Below, in pieces: positions 1 to 55,184 of a DNA stretch of 64,000 nt. Position 1 is the stretch's first letter. Every line of letters starts with the position of its first letter. The stretch lies in the NCBI GenBank assembly GCA_026770705.1, contig JANJGN010000035.1, forward strand, positions 13,144,001 to 13,208,000, given 5' to 3'. Both the position numbers and the translations under genes were made by a program. This DNA is from Isurus oxyrinchus. Taxonomy: Eukaryota. The notes beneath the pieces were generated by a model. The model was not told where the DNA came from. It was given only the letters and a program-made list of their open reading frames with translations, and did not search any database.

Positions 1-1053
1 ATTATGGGGATTCGGTTGAAGAGTAATTATATTAACTGTGATTGTTGCGTCGACTCGAATTCGAAACTAACTTTCATTATTTAACTGAATATTAATCAGT
101 TATTTGATCTAATTATTGGACTGAATGTAAACCTGATATTTACTGCCGATTCTTGGTCTGAAGGATAATAAGAAACTGTGGTTATTGGATTCGAAAAGGA
201 ACTGTACTTGGGCGCAACAATAGCTAAATATTTAGTGTGTTTACTGGACTGGAAAAATAATACCCCAATTAACTTTGATTCATCGGCTGAAAATTAATTC
301 GACATTTACTGTGATTAATGAACTGAACAAAGGACGAAACTTTTTACCCCGATTATTGGAGCAAATAAGTAATTGCGTGTTTATTATGCTTATCATGCTG
401 AAAAATAATCCGATATTTATGATGATTAATGCACTGAACCACAAAAGGTCCCTAGACGCTATTACTGTACTGTGAACATTTATATATTTACTGCAGCTAT
501 CCGAGTGTACACTAATTATTGTGATGTTTGGGCAATAACTAGAAACGAACTGCAATTTTTCGACTCAATGAAAGTTATTGGACTGAATGTTTATAAATTC
601 TTTGCTACGCTCATTGCGCTCAACAATAATCTAATGTGTACAGTGAGGATTGGACTCATGAATAAACACATTTGGCGTTCGTTAGGGCAAAAATGAGTTA
701 GTGACTTACCGTGACAGTTGGGGTAAACAGTAATACGATGTGCACAATGCTTATTTGACTGAATATTATTTATTCGACTAGATTATAATTTGAAATTCCC
801 TGCGATTATTGGACTAATCAACAGTAGAATCTGCGGTGTCATGATTAGATTGCAAAAACTTGGAAATTTCGTTCAATCATAGAACTGAAGTTGTGTTTAC
901 CGTGAATATTGAACTGACAATAATTAAGTGTTTAATTATAGTATTGAAGGCATCACTAATTATATATGTTCAACGCCATTTTGAATAATAACAAGCAGAT
1001 TTTTACTCTGATTTACTGAAGTTAAAAAATATTTGCGGCGATTCACAAATTCA

Positions 1054-1640
1054 GGGCAGGATTTTTCCGCCGGCGACGGGCTCGCTCGCCGACGCGTAAA
1101 ATGAGGCGGGATGACGGGCGGAACTCCCGGTGTCTGGCCGCCCCATTTAAATTTTCAGGAAGGCGGGGAGCGCAGTAAAATCAGCTGCCGCCTGACAGGT
1201 CAATGGCCAATTGAGGCGGGATGTGGTTTCATGTAGGGTTTAAGAAAAAAAAATAATTAAGTTTTTATCAAAGTTATGGACATGTCACAACTCATGTGAC
1301 AGTGTCACATGAGGGGACATGGTAGGGAAATTTTATTATTCCATTTTGAACATTTTGACTTTTGGAGCCAATCTCCCTGAGGCAGCACTTAGCCTCATTG
1401 AGATGAGGGTGCTCCTTTGTGCGCATGCATGAAAGAGCGCACTCTCGATTTTGGGATCCCCCACCTTCCTGCCCGCACAGGGAGCGTGCAGCGCTTCAAG
1501 GCAGACATCACACTGGGCAGGCCTTAATTGGCCCACTCACGTAAAATGACGTTGCACCCCCAATTGCGAGCGCCGATCAGGAGTGCGCCTGTGCACACCC
1601 ACCCTTCAACTTCACCCCCGACAGTGGGAAAATCCTGCCC
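1054..1640. mobile_element. Non-autonomous DNA transposon (MITE), GC/CpG-rich
   Basis: Terminal inverted repeats GGGCAGGATTTT (1054-1065) / AAAATCCTGCCC (1629-1640); internal 11-bp palindrome arms CTCATGTGACA-G-TGTCACATGAG (1291-1313); no transposase; no clear TSD. Confidence 0.8.
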
Positions 1641-1750
1641 TTTGTGCCACTTGCCTTCCCACCTATTTTTGTGTCATCCGCAAACTTGGCAGTAGTACAT
1701 TCTCTTCCCTCAACCAGGTCCTTAATATATATTGTAAATAGTTGTGGTCT
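1641..1750 (-). mobile_element. CR1 LINE reverse-transcriptase fragment
   Basis: Minus strand encodes FADDTKIGGKAS, the CR1-type RT catalytic motif. Confidence 0.8.
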
Positions 1751-1769
1751 CATTTTCCGAAGCTATTGA

Positions 1770-2200
1770 TGTGTATAATACTATTGGAAAACATTTTTCT
1801 TTTAAAATAGAGGTTTAGTCTGTGGTTGTGTCTTAATTGCATTAAGGCCAGTTAGTCTGCGTGCTATGACATGCACTAATTTTGAGATATAAACAGAATT
1901 AGAGGTGCACTTGTATTTTGTTGCATAGAGCATTCAAGAAGTGTGGTGAAATCTGGCACCTAGCTAGCAGAAACCAAGCAAATTGTTTATATTGATAATA
2001 AAATTGGTACTGTGAATGGGGCTCTATTGTGAGGAGAGGTAGTGTTCAAAGAGGCTTGTGATGCAATTTACATTCAATGAGATGTGCTGGATATAACCAA
2101 GAGCAGTGGTGTGTGTGTGGACAGAGGCAATTTAAAATCAATACAACTGTGAGCCTACAACTGACTCCACAGCAACCAAAGTGAGAAAAAAAAACCTCAG
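1770..2200. mobile_element. Unclassified insertion, possibly the 5' part of an LTR
   Basis: Non-satellite, non-CR1 sequence separating two CR1 pieces; starts TGT. Family assignment is a recollection-based guess. Confidence 0.3.
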
Positions 2201-2204
2201 CTTG

Positions 2205-3300
2205 GGCTCTCTCTTCCTTTTTTACCTATCGTAAGAAGCTCTTAAAATCCATTTTTATATTACTTGCTAGTTTACCCTCAAAGTTTACTTCCTCCATCTT
2301 TGTTTCTTTTTTGGTCATCTTTTGTTGGTTTTTAAAACTTTCCCAATCCCCTGGCTTACTACTAATATTTGCCATCTTACATGGTTTTCATTCAAATTGA
2401 TACTATCCTTAACTTCCTTGGTTCGTTGTATCATCCCCTTCCTATAACCCTTCTTCCTCACTGGATAGCCTCTTTGTTGTTAGTCATGAACTATATGCTT
2501 AAATGTCTGTCATGGTTCATTCTCCATCTTTTCTGATAAACTCATTTCCCAGTCCACCACAGCCAATTCTGCCCTCATTCCTTCATAATTAGCCTTATTT
2601 AAGTTTAGCACAGTTGTTTCCAACCCAAGTTGCTCAATCTCAAACTGAATGCTACATTTTACAATGTTATGATCACTATTTCCTAAGTGATCTTTTACTC
2701 TGAGATCATTTATTAAATTTGCCACATTGCACATTACCAGATTCAAAATAGCCTAATCCCTGGTTCGATACATAGCATATTGTTTCAGAAAACTGTCTCG
2801 AATATACTCTATGAATTCTTGCTCATGGCAACTTCTACCAATTTGATTTTTCCAATCTACATGGAAATTAATGTCACCCATGATTAATTTACTGCCTTTT
2901 TTACATGCCCTGATTATCTCCTGGTTTATACTCTGTCTTACATTATAGCTACTGTTCACTGATGGTCTACTCCCACCAGTATTCTTCCACCTGTTATTTC
3001 TTACCTCCACCCAAATGGATTCTACATCTTCTGATCCAAGATCATTTCTTGCTGTTGTGCGTATTCCATCTTGTACTAACAAAGCTAAGTCACCACCCTT
3101 CCCTTCCTGCCTGTCCTTTCGAGAAATCACATACTCCTGAATATTCAGTCCCCAGCTTTGATCTCCTTGCAACATATCTCCATAACACCTCTAAGATCCT
3201 ACACATTAACCTCTATTTGTGCTGTTAATTCATTCTAAGAACTAGGCAGGTTTCAGTAAGGAACCATTAATTTTGCCCTTTTGCCATTTCCCCCCTACGA
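2205..3300 (-). mobile_element. CR1 LINE ORF2 fragment (AP-endonuclease and linker), decayed
   Basis: ORFs 2753-3175 and 2510-2746 give RKDRQEGKGGDLAL, ESIWVEVRN, IMGDINF, LGNSDHNIV, LNKANYEGMRAELA, typical of CR1 endonuclease; stops and frameshifts are present. Confidence 0.9.
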
Positions 3301-4698
3301 CCCTAATTAACATGATATTTACATGGTGTATTTGACTGAAAAATCCAAAATTTTCTTTGTAATTACACAACAAAACAATAAGTACATGGTAGAATTGTTC
3401 CAAGCAGTTGAGATTAATTTGAAATGTATTCAGATAACTATACTGAACAATATTTGAATAGTTAGATTATTAGAGTCAATGCAATTAGATGATTTAAAGT
3501 TAACACTTGTGTAACAAATAATTATATACTTCCAAAACTTAATGGACCAAAACAATCTGGACATTATTTGTCATTTAAATTTGAAAGATATTTAATGAGA
3601 TGCTTGGATTAAAGTAAATGGGTTTTACATGGAAGACTGGACAGATTATGCTTGAATATTATATATGTTTAGTTACCTAAAATTAATTAGAAATGTTACT
3701 AGAATTTAGGAGCAGCAATAACTGGATATACACCACAATAAGTAGAAAGTTGCTATGATTATTTGAGTGAAAACTATTTAGATGATTGTCAAAAATTTGG
3801 GATTGGCAAGAATTTCATATTTACTGCAATTATTGAACTGATCAATACTGGGATGTTTAGTAGTATGTAATGTTACATTGATATTCATGTGGTATTTAAA
3901 ATGAACATTTTTTAATACGTTTCATCTGTTTATTGGGAACACAACTATTTGATATTTAATGCTTTATTGAAAGATCTAATAATTAGTTCCATTCAGAATG
4001 TTTTGGAATTATTAGACTCTGAACAATTAGATATGACTTGTTATATTTTGGATTCAAAAATAATTATATATTTTTAAGGCAATTTGGATTAATAATTGTA
4101 TAATCATTGTCATTATAGGACTGAACATTTGAAATGCATTTACTGAGATTCATGGTCTGAAAGCACGATAAGATTTTAACTGGAGTAAATGATATGCGGA
4201 TGTTCCATGTGCTTAGAGCACACAACAATAATAAGGCATTTTAAAATAACTTATGACCAACAGTAATGAGACACATAGTGGTCTGAACAATCATTAAACA
4301 TCTCTTCTGATTATTTTGCAATGTTTAGAAAGGACCTGCAATTATCAGAATGGAACATAAATAAATCTTCACGGCCTTTATTGCACTGAATAATAATCAT
4401 ATTTGCTATGATTAGTGAGCTGAAGAGTAATTTGATTATTTCTATGTGAAGGGTACTGAAAAACAATTAGATTTTATGAATATGCAATGAGGAAATAATG
4501 GTACATTATTGCTATTAATTGGACTAAAGAAACAATGGGAATTCACTATAATGGATTGACAGAATAATTAAAAATGTGTGTTAATTGTAATTTTAATACA
4601 GAGTATTTAAAGTTGATGGCAAAAGAACAAATATTTGATGTTTTCAAAACAGATTGCACTCATAATAATTAGATATTCACTGTCATTTGTGTGATTTT

Positions 4699-4717
4699 TA
4701 TATATATATATATATAT
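4699..4717. repeat. (TA)n microsatellite
   Basis: Run of TATATATATATATATATA. Confidence 0.8.
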
Positions 4718-7700
4718 AATACAATATTTACCAAAGCCTTGAACTAAAGGACAGTGCGATGTTAAAAAATTTTTGTTACATTGAAACACACTTTGAAATT
4801 CATATGAACCTGGAATGAATTTTGACATTTCTTCTGATAGTTGAAAGGCCATTAACATCAATGATGTATGCAATAATTAGACATTTTAAAATGTAATTTT
4901 GAGATTTTCTCTGCAATCAATTGGCTTAACAATTAAGCAATCTTACGGCAAGTGATGGTTTGAGAAATAATTATACATTTATAGTAGTCATTCGACTGAG
5001 CTAATGATGACACCTTTTATTGTTGCATTGAAAAATTGATTAAAGCCTACTTTTTTAAATAGGAATGTAAAAAATAAGATATTTATAATGATTTTTCCAC
5101 TTACAATATTTAAGTATTTATTATGTTTAGTCCAATGACAAAAAATAAGAAATTTAATCTAATTGTTACCCAGAAAAAAATAGAGATTTCAAACCTTTCC
5201 ACTTACTTTAATCCACTTATTTTAATTCTATGAATCTCATTAAATATCTTTTAAATTTTCAGTTAAAAAATGACAGCGAATGTCCAGTTATTTTTAGTCC
5301 AATATGCTTTCCAAATTTACATATTCACTGTGATCATTCGATTTGGTATTAATCATACTTCCTGTGATTATTTTCAGAAGAATAATTAGAAAATAGCTCG
5401 CACTATTGTGCAGTATAATAATTACATGCAGCCATTATTGTGCTGAATTTGAATTCATGCATTTTTATATTGCAAAAACATCTTGTTTGATCTTTGTATT
5501 GGTCTGAGAAATATCTAGCTATTCAGTTTGATCAACTAACTAACAATAAGTGCATAATATAATCGTTTTTTTGCATTTGATAACAATTTGAGATCTGTTG
5601 CGGAAAGTGGACTGAAAAACATATGAACAGATAACGAGGCAATTAGTCTGAGAAACAAAATGGATATGAAATACGGGCATTGAAGGGAATAATAACTTGA
5701 TATTTTGAAGGCGTTTTGGGCTAATGGTAATTAAGAATTCATTGTATATCATTTAAACACCATTTTCTATGACTTTGGGACTTGAAAGTAATTAGATTTT
5801 ACTGTGACGATGGGGATAAACAATACTTTCCTTTAATTTTGTTCATTGCCGGAACTGTATTTAGAAATTTCCAAAGAATCTGGAACCAGTTATGATATGT
5901 TACATACTTGTGTTATTGGCCTGAACAATCATTAGAAAATTACCGGTTATTTACTGAGCAATATTTACTATCCAACTCTATTGTCTATATAACAATTAAA
6001 CACAACTGTATTCATTGTACTGCACAGAAACCAGAAATTATAGTTCCGAATAACCATCACAGTAAATGTCTCAATGGTGATCGGTGGAATACACAAAGTA
6101 AATATCTAAGAATTGTCAGTTGAACAATAAATTTAATATCCAATAATTACATACCCATTAAATGAAGCATGGTTTCAAACATTTCCGGTGCATCCCAGAA
6201 GATTTCTAATCATTTCTTTTCCAGTACAAATATCACCATAAGTGTTTAAAAATTGCTCAGTGCATCAATTGGCATAAAACTATTTCATTATTCAGTAGGC
6301 TGATCACAGAATAGGAATCAGTGAATCCACTTTGTAAGTATCTCATGACTGATCATCTCAGTATTAGCTGGCAAGAATGTTGATAAACTTTTCTATAATT
6401 ATACAAATTCAAACAACAAATAACAGTAACCATTGCTGATTCAAAGTTCTGAGAAAATTTCAAAACATTGTTCAGTTCAGTAAGAAAAACACAAAGTCCA
6501 AGTGTTGTTCATTCCAATTATCACCATATAGATCAATTATTTTCCTATGGAGGATTGCAGTAAGTATCCTTAAAATGTTCAGATCAAAAATCAGAACGAA
6601 TATCTAACGTTGATATTAGTCCAAAACGCTTTTAAAATATCATTTTTTTTTACATTCAATACTAACGTTAAATATCTAAATGGTTTTCGTCCACTAAGTT
6701 AACTATATGTCATATCTTCAGTTGGCTTATCAAATTAATATGTGAGTTACTTTAAATCTGATAAATAATTCTAACATCCATTATTGTCTTCTATATTACT
6801 CATAGTGACTATCTTCTTACCGTTCAGTCTGATATAGTTAGGAAATAATAATAAATTCCTTTAATGCGATAATGGAGTAAATATGTATTTATTATTCAAC
6901 CCTTTATTTACTGTTAGTTTCTAATTATAGTTGTGACAGCAAGCACATAAATTTAACTATTGTTCAATCCAATAATAACAGTAAATATGTAAATTCCATC
7001 AGTCCAATAAAACCTTGAAAGTATTAATTATTTGCTCCTTGTAATCAGCACAGTAAATATCAGTGGATAATCATAATAAATACCTAAAAATTGCCAATCG
7101 AGAAATCATTAAGTATCTAATTATTTTGGCACTATAAATACAATCGGGATTTAATCAATTTCGTTACAATAATCCGAGTAAATACCTAAATCATTTGCAA
7201 AGTCTAATCATCACCATACATTTTTAATGATTGCTCTTCCATTAATTGAAGTAAACATATTTAACTCAGCTGTCCTCTAATCCCCACTAATATGGCAATA
7301 TTATCAGCCCAAATCTTGTTGTTAACTTCAACAAGAGCGTTCAATATCTCTCTATTGTCTCTCTCGCTATCAAATAAAACGTCAAAAAATCTTATGAATC
7401 ATATATTTTTAACATGATATGGATTTAATATTCTTGCTCAGTACAACAATACCAGTAATCAGAGTAAGTTCAGAATCTGGACAGATCAAAATACTTGGAA
7501 GCATCAACGATTGTTCAGTCCAATAATCACGGTCAACATCTAATATTTGACCCATCAAAGGAAAACAAAAACAAAATGAATACAGACGTTGCACATTCTA
7601 CTCATTATCATTACAGCGATCCCCTGACACTTGAACTGTTCAGGTAGACAAGTCTAACTAATTTCAAATTATTGTTTAATGGAACTAAAACCGGTAACAT

Positions 7701-7938
7701 ACCTATTTCTCTTCATACTGTCAGACATTAGATGCCTCTTTTGTTCAGTCAAACACACACACAAATGAACTAATTATTCCTCAGTCCAATAATCATATCA
7801 AACATCTGATTTTTGCTCAGTTCAAATAATTCAGTAAGCATTAAATTAATTTTCAGCACAGCAGATCCTTCGAATCTCTAATTATTTTGCAGTCCAGTCT
7901 GTTTCTAAATGTTGCACAGTGCAACACTCATTGTAAAT

Positions 7939-8107
7939 AAAAGCAAAAAACTGCGGATGCTGGAAATCCAAAACAAAAACAAAAATACCTGGAAAAACTC
8001 AGCAGGTCTGGCAGCATCTGCGGAGAGGAACACAGTTAACGTTTCGAGTCGGTATGACTCTTCAATAGAACTAAGTAAAAATAGAAAAGAGGTGAAATAT
8101 AAGCTTC
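7939..8107 (-). mobile_element. Solo 3'-terminal (pLTR) fragment of a Penelope-like element, sister subfamily
   Basis: Reverse complement of the same terminal sequence as 10840-11000 (CTGCGGATGCTGGAAATCC...CTCAGCAGGTCTGGCAGCATC) but with different internal sequence; flanked by TGTAAAT at 7932-7938 and 8108-8114. Confidence 0.8.
8034..8072 (-). ncRNA. Degenerate minimal type I hammerhead ribozyme motif
   Basis: Minus strand AGUU-CUAUUGA-A-GAGUC-AUACC-GACUC-GAAA-CG-UU-AACU; stems I and II pair, core mutated. Confidence 0.5.
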
Positions 8108-8218
8108 TGTAAATGTCTAATTATTGTTTAGGCCACGGCTAACAGTTTATATCTCATACAAAAACAGAATTACCTGGAAAAACTCAGCAGGTCTGGCAGC
8201 ATCGGCGGAGAAAAAAAG

Positions 8219-8257
8219 AGTTGACGTTTCGAGTCCTCATGATCCTTCGACAGAACT
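8219..8257 (-). ncRNA. Minimal hammerhead ribozyme motif in the inverted pLTR
   Basis: AGUU-CUGUCGA-A-GGAUC-AUGAG-GACUC-GAAA-CG-UC-AACU; one stem II mismatch. Confidence 0.6.
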
Positions 8258-8338
8258 TGAGTTCGAGTCCAAGAAAAAGTTGATTCACTTGTATTCACTA
8301 TACCCCCTGACCTTCCCCTCTCCGATGCTGAATGTTCA

Positions 8339-10483
8339 GTGCTCAGCAAAGGACTTAGTTTCATACCCTTACGCCCTCACCTCAATGAATTTCGGGCTCG
8401 GCATGATACTGAACTCTTCTTCCGCCGTCTTCGTCTCCGGGCTCACTTCTTTGGGCAGGAGTCCTCTCCCAGTTCAACGGATCCTTTTACCCATCTCCAA
8501 TATTCTCCCTCCACCTGGACCCCTCCCTCTGGATTCTTACCTTCTCTTGATCTTTTCATTGAGAACTGTCGGCGTGACATTAGTCATCTCAATTTCTCTG
8601 CTCCTCTCACCCATTCTAACCTGTCTCTCTCTGAACTTACTGCACTCCATTCTCTCAGGTCCAACCCTGACATTGTCATCAAACCCACTGACAAGGGTGG
8701 TGCTGTTGTTGTCTGGCGCACTGACCTCTGCCTCGCGGATGCTGAGCGTCAACTCGCAGACACTTCCTCCTACCTCTCCCTGGACCATGACCCCATCACT
8801 GAACATCAAGCCATTGTTTCCAGGACTGTCACTGACCTCATCTCCTCTGGGGATCTCCCTCCCACAGCTTCCAATCTGATAGTCACCCAACCTCGGACGG
8901 CCCGCTTCTATCTCCTACCCAAAATCCACAGACAGAACTGCCCCGGTAGACCGATCGTCTCAGCTTGCTCCTGCCCCACAGAACTCATTTCTCGTTATCT
9001 TGACTCCCTTCTCTCTCCCCTTGTCCAGTCCCTTCCCACCTACATCCGTGATTCCTCTGACACCTTACGTCACAACAATAATTTCCAGTTCCCTGGCCCC
9101 AACTGCTTCCTCTTCACCATGGACGTCCAATCCCTCTACACCTCCATCCCCCACCAGGATGGTCTGAGGGCCCTTAGCTTCTTCCTCGAACAGAGGCCCG
9201 AACAATCCCCATCCACTACTACTCTCCTCCGTCTGGCTGAACTTGTTCTCACGCTGAACAATTTCTCCTTCAACTCCTCTCACTTCCTCCAAATAAAAGG
9301 TGTGGCTATGGGTACCCACATGGGCCCCAGCTATGCCTGTCTCTTTATGGGGTATGTGGAACATTCCTTGTTGCAGTCCTACTCCGGCCCCCTTCCACAA
9401 CTTTTTCTCCGGTACATCGATGATTACTTTGGTGCCGCTTCAAGATCTTGTCGGGACTTGGAAAAATTTATTAATTTTGCTTCCAATCTCCACCCCTCCA
9501 TCATTTTCATGTGGTCCATCTCTGACACTTCCCTTCCCTTCCTTGACCTCTCTGTCTCAATCTCTGGTGATAGACTGTCCACCAATATCCATTACAAACC
9601 CACCGACTCCCACAGCTACCTCGACTACAGCTCCTCACACCCCGCTTCCTGTAAGGACTCCATCCCATTCTCCCAGTTCCTTCACCTTCGTCGCATCTGT
9701 TCCGATGATGCTACCTTCAAAAACGGTTCCTCTGACATGTCCTCCTTCTTCCTAAACCAAGGTTTTCCACCCACGGTCGTTGACAGGGCCCTCAACCATG
9801 TCCGGCCCATCTCCCGCGCATCCGCCCTCACGCCTTCTCCTCCCTCCCAGAAACATGATAGGGTCCCCTTTGTCCTCACTTATCACCCCACCAGCCTCCG
9901 CATTCAAAGGATCATCCTCCGCCATTTCCGCCAACACCAGCATGATGCCACCACCAAACACATCTTCCCTTCACCCCCCTTATCGGCATTCCGTAGGGAT
10001 CGCTCCCTCCGGGACACCCTGGTCCAGTCCTCCATCACCCCCTACTCCTCAACCTCCTCCTATGGCACCACCCCATGCCAACACAAAAGATGTAACACCT
10101 GCCCCTTCACTTCCTCTCTCCTCACCGTCCAAGGGCCCAAACATTCCTTTCAAGTGAAGCAGCATTTCACTTGCATTTCCCCCAACTTAGTCTATTGCAT
10201 TCGTTGCTCCCCATGTGGTCTCCTCTACATTGGAGAGACCAAACGTAAACTGGGCGACCGCTTTGCAGAACACCTACGGTCTGTCTGCAAGAATGACCCA
10301 AACCTCCCTGTCGCTGGCCATTTTAACACTCCACCCTGCTCTCTTGCCCACATGTCTGTCCTTGGCTTGCTGCATTGTTCCAGTGAAGCCCAACGCAAAC
10401 TGGAGGAACAACACCTCATCTTCCGACTAGGCACCTTACAGCCTTCCGGACTGAATATTGAATTCAACAACTTTAGGTCGTGA
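8339..10483 (+). CDS. Penelope-like element reverse transcriptase + GIY-YIG endonuclease (714 aa, N-terminally truncated)
   Basis: Motifs DKGG, FYLLPKIH, GRPIVS, MDVQSLYTSIP, GVAMG, RYIDD, LPFLD, YKPTDSHSYL; linker CxxxxCxxC; VYCIRCSPCGLLYIGET...RFAEH...GLN. The frame continues upstream to ~8291 (VFTIPPDLPLSDAE) with no ATG; the GTG start is nominal. Confidence 0.95.
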   Translation: MLSKGLSFIPLRPHLNEFRARHDTELFFRRLRLRAHFFGQESSPSSTDPFTHLQYSPSTWTPPSGFLPSLDLFIENCRRDISHLNFSAPLTHSNLSLSELTALHSLRSNPDIVIKPTDKGGAVVVWRTDLCLADAERQLADTSSYLSLDHDPITEHQAIVSRTVTDLISSGDLPPTASNLIVTQPRTARFYLLPKIHRQNCPGRPIVSACSCPTELISRYLDSLLSPLVQSLPTYIRDSSDTLRHNNNFQFPGPNCFLFTMDVQSLYTSIPHQDGLRALSFFLEQRPEQSPSTTTLLRLAELVLTLNNFSFNSSHFLQIKGVAMGTHMGPSYACLFMGYVEHSLLQSYSGPLPQLFLRYIDDYFGAASRSCRDLEKFINFASNLHPSIIFMWSISDTSLPFLDLSVSISGDRLSTNIHYKPTDSHSYLDYSSSHPASCKDSIPFSQFLHLRRICSDDATFKNGSSDMSSFFLNQGFPPTVVDRALNHVRPISRASALTPSPPSQKHDRVPFVLTYHPTSLRIQRIILRHFRQHQHDATTKHIFPSPPLSAFRRDRSLRDTLVQSSITPYSSTSSYGTTPCQHKRCNTCPFTSSLLTVQGPKHSFQVKQHFTCISPNLVYCIRCSPCGLLYIGETKRKLGDRFAEHLRSVCKNDPNLPVAGHFNTPPCSLAHMSVLGLLHCSSEAQRKLEEQHLIFRLGTLQPSGLNIEFNNFRS

Positions 10484-10864
10484 GCTCCCTCCCCCATTCC
10501 CACCCCATTTCTGTTTCCCCCTTTCCTTTTTTTCCAATAAATTATATAGATTTTTCTTTTCCCACCTATTTCCATTATTTTTAAATATTTTAAAATCTTT
10601 TATGCTCTCCCCACCCCCATTAGAGCTATACCTTGAGTGCCCTACCATCCATTCTTAATTAGCACATTCGTTTGGATAATATCACCAACTTTAACTTTAA
10701 CACCTATGTGTTCTATTGTACCATTGTTGTTGACATCTTTTGATGATCTGCTTCTATCACTGCTTGTTTGTCCACACAACCACCTCTCTCTCTATCTCTC
10801 CGCCCCCCACACACACACACCTTAAACCAGCTTATATTTCAACTTTTTCTTGGACTCGAACTCA

Positions 10865-10903
10865 AGTTCTGTCGAAGCGTCATGAGGACTCGAAACGTCA
10901 ACT
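10865..10903 (+). ncRNA. Minimal type I hammerhead ribozyme motif in the 3' pLTR
   Basis: AGUU-CUGUCGA-A-GCGUC-AUGAG-GACUC-GAAA-CG-UC^AACU; predicted cut after C10899. PLE pLTRs are known to carry such minimal hammerheads. Confidence 0.65.
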
Positions 10904-29356: not shown

Positions 29357-29609
29357 ATTATATATCTCTATGTTTGTTTTGAATTATCAAATTGTCGAAA
29401 TCTAATATGTATCATATATTTTAACTATGATATGAATTTAATATTCTTGTTCAGTGCAATAATGCCAGTAAATATCACATCATCGTTTCTTTTTAAAATC
29501 CGTGTAAATTTAGAACCTTTTCCGATCAAAATACTCAGAAACATCTACGACTGTTCAGTCCAATAATCACAGTCAAGAGCTAATATTTGTCCCATCAAAG
29601 GAAAATGAT

Positions 29610-37900: not shown

Positions 37901-40900
37901 GATATTTAGTATCATTATTGAAGTCAATAATAATTAGAGCCATTCAGATGGGTGTGGAATGATTAGACTCAGAATAATTAAATATTTCTTAGGGCTTATT
38001 TTATTGAAAAATATTTGGATACTTTAAATCGTTTTGCATTTATAATAACTGGATGATCATTATGGCTATCAGACCAGGATTGAAAAGGCATTTCCTGAGA
38101 CTCTTGTCTGCAAATATAATTAGGTATTACTGTGACCACTGCACTAAGTGATACATGGATTTTACATGTGTATGTTGCACGCATCAATAATAAGAAATTT
38201 TCAAAGAATTTCGGATCAGCAGTAATAAGCCACATGCTGTTTCTCATTGGTCCGAACAATAATTCAAAATTTCACACGAATTTTGGACTGAACTACATTT
38301 AGAAATGAACCGTAATTATTGGAAGGAAAAATAATGAAATAATCAGAGCATCTATTGGACTGAACAATAATTTGATGTTTACGGTGCTTATTGACCTTAT
38401 TGAACAATAATCATGTTTAGTATAACTATTGGACTGCAGAATAATTCGATTATTTCTGTATGATGGCACTGAAAAACAGTTAGATGTTATGACTGTGCAA
38501 CAAATAAATATGTTAACAGTATTTACTGGGGTAAATAAAAAACGTGGAATTCACTGTAAATGCGGGACTGAACAATTGAAATACTGTGTGTTTATTGTAA
38601 TTAGAATAGAGTGTATTTAAAGTTAATATTCAAATGAACAAATAGTCGATGTTGTCAAAGCCGATCAGGTTGATTATGTTGAGATATTCACTGTGATTTG
38701 TGAACTGAAATATATATATGGAGTTCATGGAATGAACAATTTTTTAGACATATTCGGTGATTATTGGGCAATAAGTATTCAGATGTTGTCCTAAAGTTAA
38801 GAACTCTCAGGAGTACATTATTCAATAAAAGCTTGAAATAAACAATAATGAGCTGGTAACTATTTTTAAAAATTTAACTGAACAATAATTTGAAATTCAT
38901 CTGATTTGGAATGAAAGACATGTTGACAATTCCTTTGACAGTGAAAAGGCAATGAATAGATATTTGATGTTAATGTTGAAAGTGAACAATTATTAGATGC
39001 TTTAAAAATAGCACTATTGAGCATTTCTCTGTAATCAATGTGCTGAACAATTAATAACATTTACTACAATTGAGGGACTGGCTGATAATTATATATGTAT
39101 GATGAAGATTGGACTGAAGAAATGATGGGATACTTCCTCTTATTATTGCATGGAAAATTATTAATATTAATGTATTTAATGGAGTGAAAATTAAATATAC
39201 TTACAGGGATTTTCCATGCACAATATTTAGCCATTTACTTGTTTATTTCACTGATAAAACTTCAGATATAAACTGTAGGGTTTATCCAGAAAAAAAAAAA
39301 ATCGAATGATTTCATACCTTTATTACACTGCTGAAATTTACATATTTATTGTGATTTTTCGATTGGATGTGACTCATATTTCCGATGACTATTTTTGGAA
39401 CAATGATTAGAAACTAGCTTTACATATTGCACTGTATAATAAGCACATGCTTACAGCTGGAATTTCACTGAATATAAATTTATGTATTTCTATTTTACAA
39501 CTATCTAATGTTTAATCTATGAATTGGTCTGAAGAATATTTATCTATTCACTTTGATCAATTAGCGAAACAATTAGTGCCCGCTTTAATAGTTTATTGTA
39601 TTTGAGATTGACTTGAAATTTACCCTATGAAATGGACCAAACAATATTTGAGCAGGCAACAAGTTGATTGGACTGAAAATAAACTATACCTAATGCTGGT
39701 CTTAAAGTGAAAGATAATCCGACATTTTGAAGGCATGGTGGACTCATGGCAATTTGTTATTCGTTGTACTTCTTCGACTGATCATTTAAATATCTCGTTC
39801 TCTGATTCAGGGACTGGAAAGTCATATTTACTGTGACAATGGGACGGAACAATTGTTGCATTTTAAATCTCTTCATTGGACAGAACTGTACTTAGAAATT
39901 TACGACGGATCTGGAACCAATTATAATTGACACATAGTGTTGTCTGGCCAATAATTAGAAAATCGAAGTGTTTATTGCACTGAACAATATTTAGTGTCAA
40001 ACTCTTATTATTATCTTGAAATAATCATATAGCTGCTGTACCTATTGAACTGCAGAAAAATCAGGAATTATAGTTCCGTGTAAGCAACACAGCAAATATA
40101 TAAATCATGATCCGTGGAAATCTGAGAATTCTGAATTGAACAATAGCATTTAATGTCTAACGATTATAATGAATATTTCAATTTTGCTAATCCAATAAAA
40201 CACCTGATGATATTAATTATTTTTTTGTTGGCAGTCATCCTAATAAATATCTAAATTATAATCAGTGGATAATGGAGTTCGTATCAAAAAAAAAAAAATT
40301 GATGAGTCACTGTAACCATCTATTTGCTTGGCATTATAACACGAACATTACTGTAATTAAATCGGTTAAATATTCAAAGCAAAGGTATAATCACTTTTTC
40401 ACACCAATAATCACTAGAAATGTTTAATGATAACTTAATCATTAATTTAATTCCCCAGTCCACTAATCACAGCTAACATAGGATTATCATGATGCTAAAT
40501 ATCTTTGTTAACTTCAAAAGTAACATTGAATATCTATTTATTATCTTTCTACTTATCAAAGAAGAAGTCTAATTATTGTTCATTCTAAAAATAACATGAA
40601 TTTAATATAATTGCTCAGAACAACAAAGTCAGTAAATATCAACTGTTGTTGGGATTGTTCAACAATTACATTAAATATAAAATCTGGATTAACCAACATT
40701 CTTGGAAACATGATTATTGTCCCTTCAATGGAAAACGTAAATACATCTGTTGATTTTTTTGTCAGCATATTTAGGTTGCCATTTTTAGTGATTTTCAAAT
40801 TCCTGCTTAGTACAACAAAAAACCGTAACATACCAATGTTTCTTCATTCTATAAGAACATTACTTTATTTTTAGTGGACACAGAGATATGACCTGATCAT

Positions 40901-43900
40901 TCTTAAGTCCAGTAATCATATTAATCAACTGATTATTTCTCAGTTCACTAAACTCAATAAACATCTGATTATTGTTCAGTCCAATAAGCACTGCAAATCT
41001 CTAATTATTTTACAGTTCAGTACTTACAGCTTTTTTTTTTAATGTTGGCCAGTCCAACAGTTACTGTAAATTTCCAATTATTGTACAGATCACTACTTGA
41101 TGTATATGCATAATTATTGATGCCCAAAATCCTGATAAATGTCTAATTATTGTTCGGTTCAATTAACAGATTTATGATCGAAGTATTGTTTAGTTCAATT
41201 ATTATCCTAAAAGCTAATTATATTTCATGCCACTTATTGCAGTAAGTGACCTTTAAATGTTGAGTCCAAAATTGTGTGAAATATCGAAAAACTATTGGTA
41301 CAAAAAACATTGAAAATGTCTAAGTATTTTTCAATTCTAAGATTGAATAACTAATTTTTTTCAGTTCCAATATCTAGCTATATGTCCAAATGCAATTTAC
41401 TCCACTTAACAGAGTAAATTTCTATTAACGGTCATGTCCAATCAATAGTTCGAATGTTCTCTTGGTGTTTTGTTAATTAATCACAGCGAGAATCTGCTTT
41501 TTATTGAGTCTACTGTTGTTCTCAGCTGTTACATATAAATTCAGCAAATAAAAGATTCATGTTGAAAGCAATAATGACAATGTCAATATACTTATCATTA
41601 AGTCCAATGATTACAGTTTGTTTCTAATTATTGTTCAGACGATAATCAAAGGAAATATAAGTAGTGTTTAACTGAAGTGATTATGTATATTTCAGTAGCC
41701 CTATTAGGGAATGAAAACACAAATTATTGTTCTGTTTAGTCATCACAGGAAATATTTAAACTATGATCAGTGGAATAATCACATGGCATACCTAAGACTT
41801 GTCAATTGAAATATTAGGGTGAATATCTAACTATTTCAAGGCACTTTTAAATGCAATGATATTGCAATCATTTTTTCAGTGCAACAATTGCCAGGAATGT
41901 GTAATTATCGCTCACTGCATCAATTGTGCAAAGGAAATAATTGTTATGCCCCCAATCACATTGAATGCTGAAGTGCTATCCTCTTTGAAAGGATTTAATT
42001 ATTTTCACCTCAATGCAACCTAGATATTGAGAGAATTTCTTTTCAATGGTCACATGATGTGTCAAAGTATCGTTTGCTATAATACTGGTGTTACTGCCAC
42101 ATAGCTTTTAAGGTCAATAAAAACACTCAGTCTGCCTTTATTGTTTTGTTCAGCAGTACATAATTGCCATCCGGTCCACTTAATTAGATAGAAATATCAA
42201 GTTAATTTTCAATACCACGAACACTGTTCAGTCAAAAGTATTGGGTATCTGATAATTACAGCAAATAATAAATTCTTGCCAGGCAGGTTGAAAAAAGTAT
42301 ACAATTGATTATAATTTCGTCATTTTGGGAAAGCAATTAATATATATTTACTGGTTGGATTTAAGTTGAAAAAACCTCACATCTTTTCAAAGAGCTTTAC
42401 ATTGGTAATAGTTCGATATTCGCTTCAGTTCGGGGGCTGAACAGTTAAGAAACATTATTGGCATGAATTAACTCAGGAACAATTAGATTTTAATGGTGAT
42501 AATAGGTCTGAAACAATGATTGGATATTTGCTCTGATTATGTCTTTAAAAAATATTTAAATGCTAATTGTATTTGTAGGACCCTAAAAGCTGGTCAGAAT
42601 TTAAAAGTTTGGTGTTTACACGGAATGAGAATTAGACATTTCATGTTTTCATTGGGCTTACGAAACTTACATGTTTACCATGATTATTCGATTGAACAAT
42701 AGTTCTACTGACTTAGATTATTAACTGACAAATAGTTAGCAATAGACTGTAAGCACTGTACTTATTAAGTAAATGTTTACAACCTTTATTGCTTTGAAAA
42801 TGAATTTAATAATGCACTATTTGTATGTAACATCACCACAAAGTTTACATTGGACTGAAAATTAAACGGATTTTCACTATGATTATTCAACAAAACAATA
42901 CGTGGATGTAAAATGTGTTTACTGGACTTGACAATAAATGGGAACTTGTTCTGATAACTGGGCTGAATCGTATATGTACATGCAGCCAGATCAGTAGATG
43001 GAAAACATTTTGGTGTTTGAACTTAATATTGTAGCTAAAATTATTCATTATTTTTGAAGTGTTCTGATTAATAATAACTTTCATTGTTGTCATTATTGGG
43101 GTAAAAATTAAATCTTAATTGTGGCGTTCATGAACTGAACAAATTTCCAACATTTATAGCCACAATCACATCAGATAATATTAGATATTACTAAGAATTT
43201 AGAAATGTGTAGAACTCTAAATTTATTCTCATTATTGAGCTAACAAATGATAGGATGTTAGCAGGTTTCATTATACAGGATAATAGCTGAAAATTTATTT
43301 GAATTTCGCAATGAAAAGTATTCAGATATTTTCATATAATTATTGGAAAGACAAAATGATCAATGCTCTTATTAAAGTGAGCAACAATTTGATCTTTTTC
43401 AAAGAGGTTATGGCTGATAATTCAAAAGTAGCTATGAAAGAATTTGATAACTGTGCTGCAGTTGATGGATTGAACATTAATTATGTATTTATGGCAATTA
43501 GTGGAAAGAATAAATAACTAGATATTTGCTCTGATCATTGCACTGAAAAATGATGAACGCTGATTTTATTTTCAAATGAAAAATAATCACATATTTATGG
43601 TGCTTTATCGATTCATATTTTTGAAGATATACTAGGATTAAACTGCTGACCATAATTTAGTTATACACTGTGATGGTTACATGGGGAAAAAATAATTTTC
43701 TCATGTTTTTATTGGATGCTTAAATTTACATATTTAATGTACTTATTTCAATGAACAATAATTATTTTCTGAAGTGTGATTAGAAACTATCAGCGTTTAT
43801 TGGACTGCAGAATAAGTACATATTTGCAACAATAATTGGATTGAAATGAATTAATCATTTTCCACATTTTGAAATTTCATTAACCTGATGCCACTTCTCT

Positions 43901-46900
43901 GTATTGGATTGCCAAATCAGTGCTGGTTGTTGTGATTAATGAAGTAAGCATTAATTAGATATTAGGATTGTTAATTGGACTTGGTGATAATTTGAAATTT
44001 GTTCTCATTTATAGATGGACTTATATTTGGACATATACTTAGATTATTGTACTGAAAAGTAGCTGTCTGGTGTAAGTATTGATGAGAAAAACAATTAGAT
44101 ACTTTGAAATAATTTTGAACTAACGACATTTGCATATTCACTCTGTTTCTTGAACTGACTATATGAAACACTTTTAACTGCGATACATGGTCTGGAAATT
44201 AACCATTTGTAGAGCAATAATTGGAATAAACAGGATTTCGACTTTATATTTGTTTGTAGAACAATAATTGAAATTTTTCCAAGAACTTTGGGTTTGAGAA
44301 TAAGTATACTAGATATATACTAGTATCAATGGGCTGAACAACATTTGGAAATGTACTATTAATTGGATTGTGTAATATTTCATACAAACTGTAATAAAAT
44401 TTATGAACAAATATTTAGATATTTGGCGCATTCAGTGGATTGAAGTGAACATGATTGTTGATCTGAACAATAATCAAATGTTCACTGTGGCTTTTTGAAT
44501 GAAATACAGTTTGTTATTATTTTGTACGTGGCAAGATAAAGATACATATTTGTGCATTAGTTGAACTGAGAAAGTTTGGAATGTTTTGAATGTGATTTTG
44601 ATTAACTATAAAATTGAAATTCACTACGATTGATAGACTGTGATTTAATAACTAAAAATATCACCTGGTTTTAGGAAGGACAAACAATATACATTTAAAG
44701 TAGGCATCTTTATGCTATCATTGGATGTTTTGAAAGCGATTTTGAATAATAATGATTAGATATTCACTGTGAACTGAGAAATGAAAATATATTGGGGAGA
44801 CTCAGACTAAAAGAAAAAAAATGAACAGTTGACTAAAGGACTGAACGATATTTAGATGCTTGCTATGAACGTAGGTTGGACAAGTGATTTACTGTGATTA
44901 GCAGACTGAATAATTGCATTGCAGCTATGATTGGGGCACTGAACAATGATTCAAAGTTATTTGTGTTGATTCCACTGGAGAATAATTTAATATTTACTAT
45001 TATTGAGGAGTTAAAAATAATGGCATGCTAAATGCTTTTACTGACTGAACTTAACAATAGTATGAAATTCATTTAGTTTAGAGAATAAGCAATATGCACC
45101 ATTATTTGAAATGTTATCAATTGATACTTCATTGTAACATGCAATGAATAATCCTTAGATATTTTCAAAGAGAGTTACACTGATGTGCTTAAGGGACTGA
45201 TCAATTAATTAAGTTTGAGACAGTTCTGGTAGTGAGCAATAATAAGCATTTTTGTTGATTATCGGACTGAAGAAATGATTATGTTTGTTGTCTGCTTATT
45301 GCACTAAGAAATGATTGAACATGAATAATTATAAACTGAATGTGATATTACAATGGGAAATCATGGATATTTACCATGTTTATTCAGCTGATCATTCTTC
45401 AGATGTTTACTGAGTTGACTACACGGAGCATAAGTCACTCATTCCATGCTTCAATTAGACTTTCGTAACTTACATGTTTACAGTTAGTATCTGATGGAAC
45501 AATAATTATACTTTCTTTAATTCTTGCCTGAACAATAATTAGGAATGAACTGTAATTATTGGGCTCAATAATAGGTACATAGTTACACTGTGTTTTATAT
45601 GGGACATAAATTTTTTTCATATGCTGCATTTATATGTAATCATAATATGATGTTTACATTGTGAATTGCACTGACAAAATGGCAACTTTTCATTGTGATT
45701 ACTCAATGAAAGTGTAAGCGGATGCTGGAGTTCTTCATTGTTCTTGTGAAAAATTTGATTTCTGCTGTGATGACTAGACTCAACGGTATTTGGATATGTA
45801 GCTGGAGTATTGAACGCCAAGCAATCAGATTATTTAAACTTAGTATTATCATGCAATAATTATATCTTTCCAAAACATTTTGCCTAATGATAACTGAAAA
45901 TTCCTTGTCAGTACTGGGCTCAATAAGGAAAAGATACTGACTGCGGCTGATGGAATTAAAAATAATTAGGTTCCGCTAAGTTATGTGTTTATTGGGAAGT
46001 CCATAATTTGATACTCAATGAAACCAACAATAATTAGATCCGTTCAGAGAGGTTTGACATTATCAGACTGAGAACAGTTATATAATCCTTGATATTTATT
46101 GTACTGAAAAACAATTAGATATTCTTAAATAGTTTTGAATTAATTACAGCTACATAATTATTGTGGTGCAGACCAAAAATTTAAAATGCATGTTTGGATA
46201 TTCATAGCCTGAAGATCTAATTAGATATTACTGTGATAATTTGAATAAATGATAATTGGATTTTACATGTGCTTTTTCCACGCAACAATAATGAGAAATT
46301 TTCCAATTTGGGACCAGCAGTAATAAAATGTGTACTGCTGTCAGTGGTCAGAACAATAATTATCAATTTCCTGTGGTGTTTTTAGAAATTAACTGTAATT
46401 ATTGGACCAAGAAATAATTACATATTCTGTGTTTGGTGAACCGAACAATAATGAGATGTTTACTGTGCTTATTGAACTGAACAATAATCACATGTTTGCT
46501 TTAATTATTGAACTGAAGAATAATTCGATTATTTCTATGTGGATGGCACTGAAAAACAATTAATTGATTATGCAACGAGTAAATAATGGTATGTGAAGGG
46601 TTTTTATTGGTCTAAATCTAAATGTGAAATTCACGATAATTGCTAAATCAAAGAATTGAAATGTGTTTACTGTAATTATAATGTAAATCATTTAGATTTT
46701 ATATTCAAATTAGCAAATAGTTGTTGTTTTCAAAGCAGAATGGAGGATTGCACAATTGTTAGGCATATTCGCTGATTAGCAAGCCATAAATAAGTGAGTA
46801 ATCACAATGAAAAGTTACCTTTTTTTAGTGCAATATACAATGTTATCCAAGTATTAAGAATGCTCAGGAAAACAATGTTTACCAAAATCTTGAACCAAAT

Positions 46901-48588
46901 AATAATAGGGTGTTGACTTTTTTTATTGTACTGCACAAGAAGTTGAAATCCATATGAGTTTGGAATGAACAATATATTTTGACAATTTCCTGTGATGGTG
47001 GAAAGTCAATATATAGATATTCAACGTGAGAATTGAAGTCAATAATGATTGCAAATAGTATTGAGATTTTCTCTGTAATTAATGGGACAAACAATTAAGA
47101 AATTTTACAACAACTGAGGGACTGAGTCATAATTATAGAGTTGTAGCAGTTATTGGACTGATCGTGTGATGAGATACTTTCTCTTATTGTGGCATTGAAC
47201 ATGCTGGAAGAATTATAGCATTTATAGGACTAACACATTGGGTAATCACAATGATCATTGCATTTACAATATTTAGGTGTTGCTATGTTTATTTCACTGA
47301 TCAAACTTTATATAGCATTTAATCAGTAATATAGTTTGAATACTGTAGAAATTTCCGTTTTTACTTTGATTATTCCACTACTTTCGTAAAAATAATTAGT
47401 AACTAATTGTAAATATTGCACTATGTAAAATGTACATAAAACCATTATTGCACTGAATATGAATTTGTACATTTTAATGTTGGACAGATCTAATGTTTAA
47501 TCCTGCTTCGATCTGGTAAATATGTAGCTATTCACTTTGATTAATTAGCTAAGCATTGCATGCATGATATTATTGTTCATTCCACTTGATAACAACTGGA
47601 AATTCATTCTGTGAAAGGGTCTGAACAATACCTTGACAGCTAATCGGATGATTGGACCAAAAAAACGCAGTGATATATAATTCGATATTTTGAAGGTGTT
47701 CTGGACATATGGAAATTAAGAATTCGTTGTAACACTTAGATTTAATCATCATGGTCTATGATTCAGGGGCTGGAAAGGAATTAGATTTTATTGGGACCGT
47801 GGGATTAAACAATACTTGCATTTTAAAACTGATTATTGACTAGGTCTTTAATGAGGAAGTTCCAAAGAATCTGAAACCAGTTTTTAACTGATACACAATA
47901 GTGTTATTGGTCTGAGAAGTAATTGGGAAATGACTGTGATTATTGCATTGAATAATATTTAGAATTAAACTCCAATTATTATCTTGAAAATAATTAGACC
48001 TCCGTTGCAGTAATTGAACTGCAGAACATTCTGAAATTATACTTCTGTGTAAGCACCACAGCAAACTTCAAAACTATCATCAGTGGAATAATCACAATAT
48101 TGTCAATCAAACAACGAAATTCAATGTCTACTTATTTTCTATTTTTTAATTGCAATTAGATTACAAACATTTCCAGTGCACTGATCACAGAAAAAATCTG
48201 ATTTTTTTTTCAGTCCAATAATTACAGTATATATCTTACCATTGCTCAAGACATGAATTGTGGTAAATTCGGTTAATTGCTCAGTCCACTAATCAGAGGA
48301 GATGCTGAACTATTAACAATTCAATTCTCTTCGAAATGATTTCATTTATGTTCACTTTAATACCACCGTTAATGATCTATTGATAGTCTACCAATAATCA
48401 CACAACACCTTCAAATATGATTTTCTCTAATGGTTATATGAATTTACCATAAATGTTAAGGACAGCGAAAACACTTTTCATGAGATTGTTGTTTAGTCCT
48501 ATCATTTCTGTGCATAGCTCAAGTCCAATAAACACACAAAAAAAATCAAATTATTGTCCCATGCCACAAGGAGGCACTGAATAATTAG

Positions 48589-48909
48589 TGGAGGCGTAGT
48601 GGTATTGTCACTGGACTGGTAACCCAGAGACCAAGTGTAATTCTCTGGGGACCTAGGTTCGAATCTCACGAACGGAACATGGTGAAACTTGGATTCAATA
48701 AACATCTGGAACTTTTTTTCAAAGTGTAAAGATGAAACCATTCCCAAATGTCGTAAAACTCCATCTGGTTCACTAATGATCATTAGAGAAGCACTACACG
48801 TGATTCCAGACCAAAACAGTGTGTTTGACTCTTAAATGCTCTCTGAACAAGGCAAATTAGGGATGGGCCTAGCCAGCAACGCCCACATCTCATGAATGAA
48901 TAAAAAAAT
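48589..48909 (+). mobile_element. tRNA-derived SINE with LINE-shared 3' tail
   Basis: A-box-like GGCGTAGTGG, B-box GGTTCGAATC; tail ATTAGGGATGGG...GCCAGCAACGCCCACATCTCATGAATGAATAAAAAAA, shared with 56648-56778 and with LINE ends at ~61190 and ~62930. Confidence 0.85.
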
Positions 48910-51134
48910 AGAGCTTGTTTAATAATATTGTTCACTCTGCCAATCACACTAAACATCAAATTATTGCTGGATTTAAATTCCCCGAAGGCATCGAAAGATA
49001 ATTCAATCCTGCAACCTATAAATGTTTAATTCATTTCCACGCTGAATATCTCATGATCATCAGTCAAGACAGCCTAGAAAGCACCTAATAATAAACATGC
49101 TTTAAATACTTATTTATCGTCATTCCAATACTTACATAATATTTTTAGTTATTCAGTCGAGCCAACGTAGCGATTTTCGATTTAATATTTAGTCACTTGA
49201 ACACAGTTATCGTCAAAATATTGCTCAGTTCATTAATTTCAGTAACTATCAATTTATTTGTCATTCCATTAAGCAAAAATACGTTTAGTTGTTGTGCAGT
49301 CCAATAATCCATAGGATTTCTTTGGAATGGTTCAGATCACGAATAGTAGTATCAATTGCCCATTCTAAATCCCTGCGTTATTATTAATTGTTGTTCCGTT
49401 CAAAAACAAATACAAAGTCCAAATATTGTTTATCACCATTCTAACCATAAAATCTAACTATTTTCCAGACCGTAAATTGCTGGAAATATCTTTTAAATGT
49501 TCAGTTCAACAATAGAACAAATATCGAATTGTTACCAGTCCAAAACACTTTTAAAATATGTAATTTATTTAAACTTTAATACACACATTAGACATCGAAT
49601 TGCTCTTAGACCATTAATCGAACTAGATTTCCAAACACACATCAGTACAGTTATCAGATCAAATTTCCAATTATTATAGGACCAATAATCTATTCTAACA
49701 TTCATTATTTTCTTTACGTTAACCACAGTGACTATCTGTTCAGTCTGACACAGATAGGATACAAATAATACATTAATTTTCGTGCTATAATTGTCGTGTC
49801 TATGTACTCAGTATTCAGCCATATGATTACTGTTGGCCCTAAAATGATGACGGTAAATATAATTATTACTCAATCGAGTAGGTAAATATGCCAATTTTGG
49901 CAGTCCAATAAGAAACTTTACACCGCTAATTATTTCTTCAAATCAATCATTAATTTTAGTGTCTAAATTATGATCAAGTGAAATGAACATCATAAATATC
50001 TAAAATTGCCAATTGATGAATCATTGTAAATATCTAGTTATTGTTTGCCTTATGAATACAGTCAGTATTTATTTGATTTCATTGCAACAATCTGGGTAAA
50101 GAACTAATCATTTGTTCAGTCGAATGAACACCATAAATTTACAATGATTAATCATCCATTAAATGCAGTAAAGATATTTAATTCAGCAACCTACCAATCG
50201 CAGCCAATATGTGATTCCAAAACTACTTGATAGCTTTAACACAAATATTAAATACCTATTAGTTTATTTTATAATTACCACATAAATGTTAACACGCAAA
50301 CGCATTCTAAAATCATATGAATCGATAATTATTGTTCGGGAAAATAGGATCAGTTAATATTCCATCATTTTTGTATTCAATAATCAGAGCAAATTCAGAG
50401 TTCTGGGCAGATCAAGTTATTGCAAACATCCGAGACCGTTCAGTCGAATAATCACAATGAATATCCATAAATGGAGCCTGTAAACGTATTTGCAATTTTC
50501 AGTACAATATTCACAGTGAATAACTTATTATCAGAAATCCAAACCCGATTGAAATATTCGAATTCTAACTATTTGAATACAGACTATAATATTCTATTCA
50601 TTGACAATACAATAATCACCTGGCATTTTAACTATTCAGGCTAAAAATGTAGAGAACATCAATGTTTCCTTCATTCTAACGAAAACCGTTAACATCCCAA
50701 CATATCTTTATTCCGTAACACCATTAATTATCATTTTTTCAATCCAATGCACACATAAGCGATCTAAGTGTTCTTGACCGTTGGAATGAAAAATCTAAGG
50801 TTATGCATCACGGAATGATGGAATCGTGGAATGAAAAAGAATTACTGACTTCTCTGATTATTTGACAAAACAAATGCTCATATAAATAACATTATTGTAC
50901 AGAAACTAATTAGGCATTATATGTGCTAAATGCATTGAACTCACACCCATTATTTTCTTCTGAGAAACAAAAACACTGGGAATATTTAGGATGGTCAAAT
51001 AATTTCATGTGATCATTGGACTGGCAGAATTTCTTTGCACACTTTTTGCATTCGATTCCTTTGTTTTATTGGTAGGCGTGAGGTGCGAATCGCTGTGTAG
51101 GCCAACACCTATTTCCCGTTCCTAATTGCCATAT

Positions 51135-55170: not shown

Positions 55171-55184
55171 CAACACATTTTCTG

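Follow-up and report, generated by a model that had tools for sequence, protein, structure and literature searches.

A 50-kb array of diverged 35/36-bp monomers in the shark Isurus oxyrinchus is probably a dead satellite with a nested history

Can a satellite that ceased to be homogenised still be read in apparently unique DNA, and if so, what built it and does anything maintain it today? This question is raised by a 64,000-nucleotide stretch of the Isurus oxyrinchus genome (assembly GCA_026770705.1, contig JANJGN010000035.1, positions 13,144,001 to 13,208,000; hereafter the window, in whose numbering all coordinates are given), for which an original prediction, made from the sequence alone, placed a 36-bp satellite of about 50 kb at 1-50,780 and staked the claim on a 36-bp autocorrelation peak. 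The peak was present: base-match autocorrelation over 1-50,780 reached 0.334 at lag 36, 0.323 at lag 35 and 0.315 at lag 71, compared to a median of 0.289 (robust z 18.8, 14.6 and 11.1, respectively), and there was no comparable peak in 50,780-64,000. A single 36-nt consensus emerged from a position matrix seeded with sequence of the window, and scanning the window with a two-strand looping profile hidden Markov model (HMM), a check that had been proposed with the claim, decoded 39,532 bases as array states on both strands, all within 1-50,940, where they made up 89.6% of non-insert DNA. No base of the 13-kb right flank beyond 50,940, used as a control, was decoded as array, and of 6,802 insert bases 10 were. 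Furthermore, three Markov-3 shuffles of one arm yielded 0-0.6% array states compared to 91% in the real arm, which rules out chance periodicity of AT-rich DNA. Thus, the array is real, forms the long head-to-tail run of a single monomer that characterises a satellite, and lies where it had been placed; it also runs on beyond the left edge of the window. As had been anticipated, default tandem-repeat settings could miss it: Tandem Repeats Finder caught 149 of about 39,500 bases at its standard weights (2/7/7) and 5,247 at 2/3/5, and the permissive run that had been suggested recovered 43,717 bases at the very loose weights of 2/3/3 only. The multi-kb orientation blocks and the higher-order unit of about 10 kb described below had gone unseen. 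We consider the array to be, most likely, a dead satellite that was amplified at rising scales and is now decaying neutrally.

The monomer is 35/36 bp long, its consensus is 75% A+T and contains no CpG, and forward and reverse monomers yielded identical consensuses. Near-complete monomers (1,028 of 1,238 segments; 564 forward, 464 reverse) were 65% identical to the consensus but only 48% identical to each other, and no monomer position was conserved above 82%. A monomer at 38356-38391 (plus strand), with matches at 32 of 36 consensus positions, is among the three best preserved. Adjacent monomers were 47.9% alike (930 pairs) compared to 48.4% for random pairs, so the high identity that concerted evolution maintains in a live satellite is absent. 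These values agree with the earlier view of an old satellite with very diverged neighbouring units, in which monomer-level homogenisation has stopped; amplification, however, went on at the 1.7-kb and 10-kb scales when the monomers had already diverged. The strict 36-bp phasing that had also been proposed did not hold. Start-to-start lengths (n=994) were mixed, with 361 of 36 nt, 278 of 35 nt, 113 of 34 nt and 65 of 37 nt, and phase decayed after about 6 units, the autocorrelation being lost by 8 units. A fixed alternation of 35 and 36 nt was likewise rejected, as the excess at lags 70, 71 and 72 agreed with a random mix. The two exact cores from which the phasing had been read, GGACTGAA (23 copies) and TTCAGTCC (9 copies), were separated by a multiple of 36 in one of 30 successive spacings and by a distance within 2 nt of such a multiple in three, which is about chance level; what the two cores mark are alternating multi-kb orientation blocks. 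In a literature search, neither this monomer nor a shark satellite of comparable layout was found described, although repeat libraries in supplements could hold it.

The orientation blocks are parts of a nested structure, in which monomers form blocks of about 48 (1.7 kb) and blocks form a unit of about 10 kb, which has a forward arm measuring some 6 kb and a shorter reverse arm, some 3.6 kb in length, and is present in six tandem copies. We took the unbroken stretch 18187-27773 (9,587 nt) as the reference unit and mapped the rest of the array onto it; the remainder mapped collinearly and in order, with private deletions in each unit. In a self-comparison, the matches listed (120 of 166) included collinear ones of 1-3 kb that were 65-72% identical and offset by 8-12 kb. 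After excision of inserts, the reverse arms were 61-77% identical (15 pairs) and the long forward arms 63-71%. Unit copies are thus closer to each other than monomers are (48%) and were later disordered by deletions, inversions and transposon insertions, as is typical of divergent higher-order repeats. The forward-to-reverse switches near 6036, 13616, 18187, 27774, 40066 and 48044 represent one homologous junction, of which the copy in unit II (near 13616) has lost about 210 nt on its reverse side. All four intact reverse-to-forward switches are homologous as well, which shows that the units were copied as a single tandem block, and junction copies are 77-83% alike. Trees built from columns with at least four copies, with four short forward-arm pieces excluded, were star-like with branches of 0.14-0.32; branches of central reverse arms were 0.14-0.18 and those of the last two 0.28-0.32. 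Edge copies sat on longer branches (0.23-0.32 compared to 0.14-0.21 elsewhere), in trees of six units with weak inner support.

Older layers are visible beneath the 10-kb unit. Identity to the monomer rises with each level: it is 65% for the real copies, 70% for the consensus of the 10-kb unit and 79% for a deeper block consensus. With 1-1035 masked during construction of the consensus arms, the reverse arm matched the distal forward arm in inverted orientation over 2,016 nt at 68.6%, and the forward arm matched itself over 1,598 nt at 65.8%. At the level of monomers, offsets of 48 were found in the reverse arm and of 50-51, 66-69 and 117 in the forward arm, and local scores reached 214 between the arms and 149 within the forward arm, compared to maxima of 67 and 39 in 60 shuffles. 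Five junction monomers were excluded from the shuffles and the null still remained inflated (mean 54), so that the score comparison is conservative. These offsets and scores indicate that, prior to the inversion, the repeating unit consisted of about 48-50 monomers. Blocks of one type formed a group across arms with 91-100% support, and those of the reverse arm clustered with different forward-arm segments; two 48-monomer types in clean alternation were rejected as a model, because support was obtained for one type only. In the deepest block consensus, 14 of 30 units are 35 nt and 11 are 36 nt long, which makes the 35-mer an old variant. Compared to 300 random pairs of blocks, flanks of 200-800 nt around the junctions scored between the 4th and the 70th percentile, so neither junction is a mirror centre; a perfect fold-back at either is thereby rejected, and the inversion was either not a clean fold-back or was trimmed later.

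The amplification layers and their order are evident from the array itself, and they fit the following history. An AT-rich 35/36-bp monomer formed a tandem array; the array is observed, and we infer its early homogeneity because identity to the monomer rises down the consensus levels. Blocks of about 1.7 kb, each with about 48-50 already diverged monomers, were then duplicated, as their surviving copies display, and part of the array was inverted, or copied inverted, which placed a forward arm beside a reverse arm in the arrangement now seen. Next, as the tandem copies and the star-like trees show, six or more copies of the resulting 10-kb unit of forward and reverse arm arose in tandem over a brief period; to judge from general satellite theory, unequal crossing-over or re-replication is the most likely mechanism. 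Once homogenisation had ended, each copy accumulated changes of its own at ordinary rates: substitutions, deletions, insertions of retroelements and, in one case, an inverted duplication suggestive of template switching.

Neither selection nor a potential to form hairpins was clearly indicated by the indels, the substitution patterns or the junctions. In 12 block pairs, which share copies and are not independent, we counted 538 gaps in 21,442 columns, i.e. 0.102 per mismatch compared to 0.089 (25 gaps) in six transposon pairs; such ordinary indels between higher-order copies lend no support to the suggestion that length and phase were actively preserved. Gap lengths dropped smoothly, with a single gap of 35 nt and none of 36 or 70-72 nt, by which unit-length indels that would preserve phase were rejected, and there were 185 deletions versus 71 insertions. 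Sites that differ from the monomer changed faster than matching sites (ratio 1.26-1.34; 0.97-1.28 when three copies agree), which at first had the appearance of a pull back towards the monomer. A simulation with a uniform rate failed to reproduce this effect, and a neutral simulation with the mild rate variation estimated from the trees gave a ratio of 1.26-1.32, which matches the real one; a pull towards the monomer was accordingly rejected. Equilibrium GC was about 0.33, close to the present GC, and no GC-biased gradient was found along the array. Bin rates and bin survival were analysed with the four short forward-arm pieces and the inverted copy excluded; junction bins changed at 0.86-0.97 of the mean, inside the 0.76-1.26 spanned by all bins, so extra conservation of junctions was rejected, and one forward-to-reverse junction folded no better than its shuffles (z -0.02). 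Searches for Rfam families, tRNAs and the CENP-B box gave nothing above chance, and a 301-nt arm piece had no match among phages and plasmids. Of 17 open frames of at least 110 residues in the window, one (126 residues) lay entirely within an arm, and protein coding by the arms was rejected. Thus, the array most likely has no sequence-specific function today, its period being a passive remnant.

Several observations weigh against neutral decay of a dead satellite. A single neutral indel rate predicts looser monomer lengths than are seen: 0.03-0.05 indels per substitution fit the whole history compared to about 0.08 in the last layer, and forward simulation from the 10-kb consensus put 47-53% of monomers at 35-36 nt, whereas 57% were observed. 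Early unit-wise turnover would explain such tight lengths. Nor do all monomer positions change at one rate (p 0.0002-0.011 for A, G and T), and the rate variation admitted to the neutral simulation could conceal weak selection. At the end of the forward arm, the final 400 nt are retained in all six units compared to 2-4 units for other bins, a difference resting on two deletions, and inserts (6,802 bases) occupy just 13% of the array. Finally, the deepest layer is implausibly old at published shark synonymous rates. Whale shark and zebra shark differ by a synonymous divergence of 0.061-0.111 over about 50 million years, according to PMC13100897, and a mutation rate of 7e-10 per generation is given for the epaulette shark in PMC10587355. 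At the former rates a branch of 0.16 corresponds to 144-261 million years (48 at three times the fast rate), and the distance to the monomer (about 0.48) to 432-784 million years (144 at three times the fast rate). The implausible age of the deepest layer suggests that substitution was faster, either locally or in the past; PMC2729386 gives an estimate of 2-3 times faster mutation for alpha satellite that has freshly died. Because the rates were taken from another lineage, the only safe statement is an age of tens of millions of years or more.

As to its origin, the dead satellite could in addition be a relic centromere or pericentromeric layer like those beside human centromeres, a plausible but doubtful proposal that is compatible with the history given above. 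It would account for the divergence of the higher-order copies and for their deletions, inversions and inserted retroelements, which resemble the dead layers described in PMC9549924, for the longest branches on edge copies, and for a divergence seemingly too great for shark rates, reminiscent of the hypermutable, freshly dead alpha satellite of PMC2729386; putative beetle centromeric regions, too, carry inverted multi-kb subarrays according to PMC13081366. However, no live homogeneous relative occurs in the window, the 36-bp unit is shorter than nucleosome length, the monomer lacks CpG, and the CENP-B box had no exact and two one-mismatch occurrences where 1.9 of the latter were expected. CENP-B boxes are not required in all centromeres. 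Moreover, identical decay would be expected in subtelomeric or interstitial arrays. That the unit began as a foldback DNA transposon of the Rehavkus or Tetris type and only later became a tandem array seems quite unlikely. Such elements hold tandem repeats in their inverted termini, in one case over more than 11 kb, and seed satellites (described in PMC12581902), and the inverted match between reverse and distal forward arm would suit them. Yet two defining tests of this origin failed, as there are no mirror-image outer ends and no unique core or transposase frame between the arms; the homology of the reverse-to-forward junctions, which points to copying as a tandem block, and the grouping of reverse-arm blocks with different forward-arm parts argue against it as well.

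That selection maintains the array, whether for a structural or protein-binding role or within a repeat-rich long non-coding RNA, and weakly constrains its period or junctions, we hold to be very unlikely. The indel deficit in older layers, the dependence of substitution rate on monomer position, the survival of the forward-arm end, the low insert share and two patches without CpG loss would all suit it; the lack of any strongly conserved monomer position, junctions that neither change unusually slowly nor fold, the absence of Rfam matches and the tolerance of large private deletions do not. We give next to no credence to a decayed 12-residue coding repeat, an assembly artefact or chance AT-rich periodicity, which are already refuted by the evidence in hand. 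Although 36 is divisible by 3 and the tandem consensus is free of stops in one frame out of six, the 35-nt units are nearly as frequent and ancestral, the array is present in both orientations, and mean conservation by position modulo 3 is even (0.65, 0.67 and 0.64). Copies just 61-83% identical cannot be mis-assembled duplicates, and the shuffles dispose of chance.

Among known systems, the macrosatellites D4Z4 and DXZ4 have a multi-kb tandem unit at one locus, which is near-identical between copies, CpG-rich and without an inner short satellite; the shark array shares the multi-kb tandem layout at a single locus but is AT-rich, far more diverged and composed wholly of monomers. Like the dead layers of human alpha satellite in the accounts of PMC2729386 and PMC9549924, it has no homogenisation, divergent higher-order copies with deletions, inversions and retroelement insertions, and perhaps older copies towards the edge. 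In contrast to alpha satellite, its decay is far deeper (48% pairwise identity compared to 71% reported there for the oldest human layer), its monomer is unrelated and 35/36 bp long, and its units of about 280 monomers have a built-in orientation switch. With the macro-dyad arrays of Tribolium, as presented in PMC13081366 and PMC12581902, it shares multi-kb opposed subarrays of one monomer, recurring inversion points and several higher-order levels. The Tribolium inversion sites are, however, about 98% identical with predicted hairpins, whereas the less similar shark junctions are conserved no more than other parts of the array and form no predicted hairpin; highly conserved, foldable inversion sites are thus the part of the Tribolium pattern that the shark array lacks. 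Macro-dyad symmetries were documented only in Tribolium, according to PMC13081366. Rehavkus and Tetris foldback transposons (PMC12581902) have similar long opposed arms of short tandem repeats, but the shark array has no mirrored termini, core or transposase, and its units stand head to tail in tandem. A putative stingray centromere has been located, its repeat going unnamed in the available part of the preprint (10.1101/2025.06.08.657570), and no satellite monomer is named in the sections consulted of two elasmobranch genome papers.

We next set out the six copies along the array, with forward arms on the plus and reverse arms on the minus strand. At the left end, 1-1035 (plus strand) is a block of about 30 monomers of the same family, 68% identical to the monomer, with an observed/expected (o/e) CpG ratio of 1.1. 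It is out of register with the 10-kb unit (score 18, compared to a shuffled maximum of 20 and positive controls of 396 and 230) and represents an older or separate layer. Unit I retains only the distal part of its forward arm (3314-6035), and its reverse arm (6036-12560) is broken by inserts at 7939-8114 and 8158-11017. The forward arm of unit II (12560-13615) is mostly deleted, and its reverse arm (13616-16543) lacks the first 210 nt or so and one inner block. Unit III has lost about 4.7 kb of its forward arm (16544-18186), which contains instead a 378-nt non-array piece at 17429-17806. This piece and another in unit II, at about 12984-13265 and without a second copy elsewhere in the window, lie at the sites of the two largest forward-arm deletions. 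The reverse arm of unit III (18187-21782, about 105 monomers) and the forward arm of unit IV (21783-27773, about 170 monomers) are complete and make up the two halves of the reference unit. At the switch between them lies a perfect 18-bp palindrome (21787-21804), which is present in one of five junction-like sites and weaker in sister junctions.

The reverse arm of unit IV (27774-30444) is truncated and carries, besides an insert at 29129-29370, the forward-to-reverse junction in an inverted copy (29603-29955). It is followed by an inverted duplication of forward-arm DNA (30445-34524, minus strand), derived mainly from 24050-27605 and 78-84% identical to its source (81% in the arm alignment), which is the youngest large event. 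Unit IV DNA was the source of the whole of 29603-34524, an inverted duplication of complex structure; the inverted copy is split in two by a 735-nt block and resembles the product of multi-step template switching. Unit V comprises a forward arm (34525-40065) and a reverse arm with deletions (40066-42291). Unit VI has a forward arm (42292-48043) and the most diverged reverse arm (48044-50775), which is truncated at the right end of the array and contains extra monomers totalling about 600 nt, together with an insert that resembles a short interspersed element (SINE). About three terminal forward monomers (50827-50940, plus strand) could not be placed in the unit.

Among the inserts, a young retroelement in unit I (8158-11017, plus strand), which we take to be Penelope-like from its layout, has a 14-bp target duplication, an inverted 5' end with 98% arm identity and a 740-residue open frame (8261-10483) with an unbroken reverse transcriptase. 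The best named matches to this frame were shark and ray proteins, which fits an elasmobranch host: Chiloscyllium at 67%, Rhincodon at 66% and, across half of the length, Mobula at 71%, others listed being at most 56%. The end of this retroelement also occurs as short pieces of differing age, palindromic or partial, at 7939-8114, 29129-29370, 31714-31973 and 62387-62600, with arm identities of 97% and 80% in two of them. An insert block at 1036-3313 consists of a GC-rich element at 1053-1641 with 16-bp terminal inverted repeats, resembling a miniature inverted-repeat transposable element (MITE), followed by an old relic of a long interspersed element (LINE); the CR1-like, SINE and MITE labels of inserts are likewise presumed from layout. 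Empty sister sites were found for three of eight inserts tested, and no insert was common to two units. The range from 98% to 80% identity between inverted ends indicates that insertions were spread over a long time after amplification. CpG o/e was about 1.0 in the array patches 1-1035 and 48903-50775 compared to about 0.4 elsewhere, and unit VI had 34 CpGs where three sisters had 12-20 in the same columns; such CpG-retaining patches may be the mark of long-term germline hypomethylation. The right flank (50941-64000, CpG o/e 0.51) consists of old, heavily mutated LINE and SINE relics, including a reverse-transcriptase fragment at 51719-52183, and simple repeats; no gene was seen there, and it gave no tRNA or Rfam match. 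Its repeats include poly-G tracts (56229-56446), a decayed AAT microsatellite (59889-60068) and a two-copy 54-bp repeat (52960-53071).

Altogether, the array is real, richer than first described and probably functionless today, in a group of animals, the sharks and rays, whose centromeric and satellite DNA is barely described. Four nested amplification levels can still be resolved at 48% monomer identity, beyond the identity published for the oldest human dead layer, in an array that is invisible to default tandem-repeat settings. The monomer profile and the 10-kb register can serve as search tools for other assemblies, and they make testable both the readable lifetime of a dead satellite in a slow-clock vertebrate and the faster mutation of freshly dead arrays relative to their flanks. 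An unlikely but far-reaching extension is that the array is a fossil elasmobranch centromeric or pericentromeric macro-dyad satellite, amplified 140-260 million years ago, kept readable by slow shark mutation and present in the same 10-kb register in other shark orders. If so, it would be the deepest decodable satellite hierarchy of any vertebrate and the vertebrate counterpart of the beetle macro-dyads, and much of the 'unique' DNA of sharks would be unrecognised fossil satellite.

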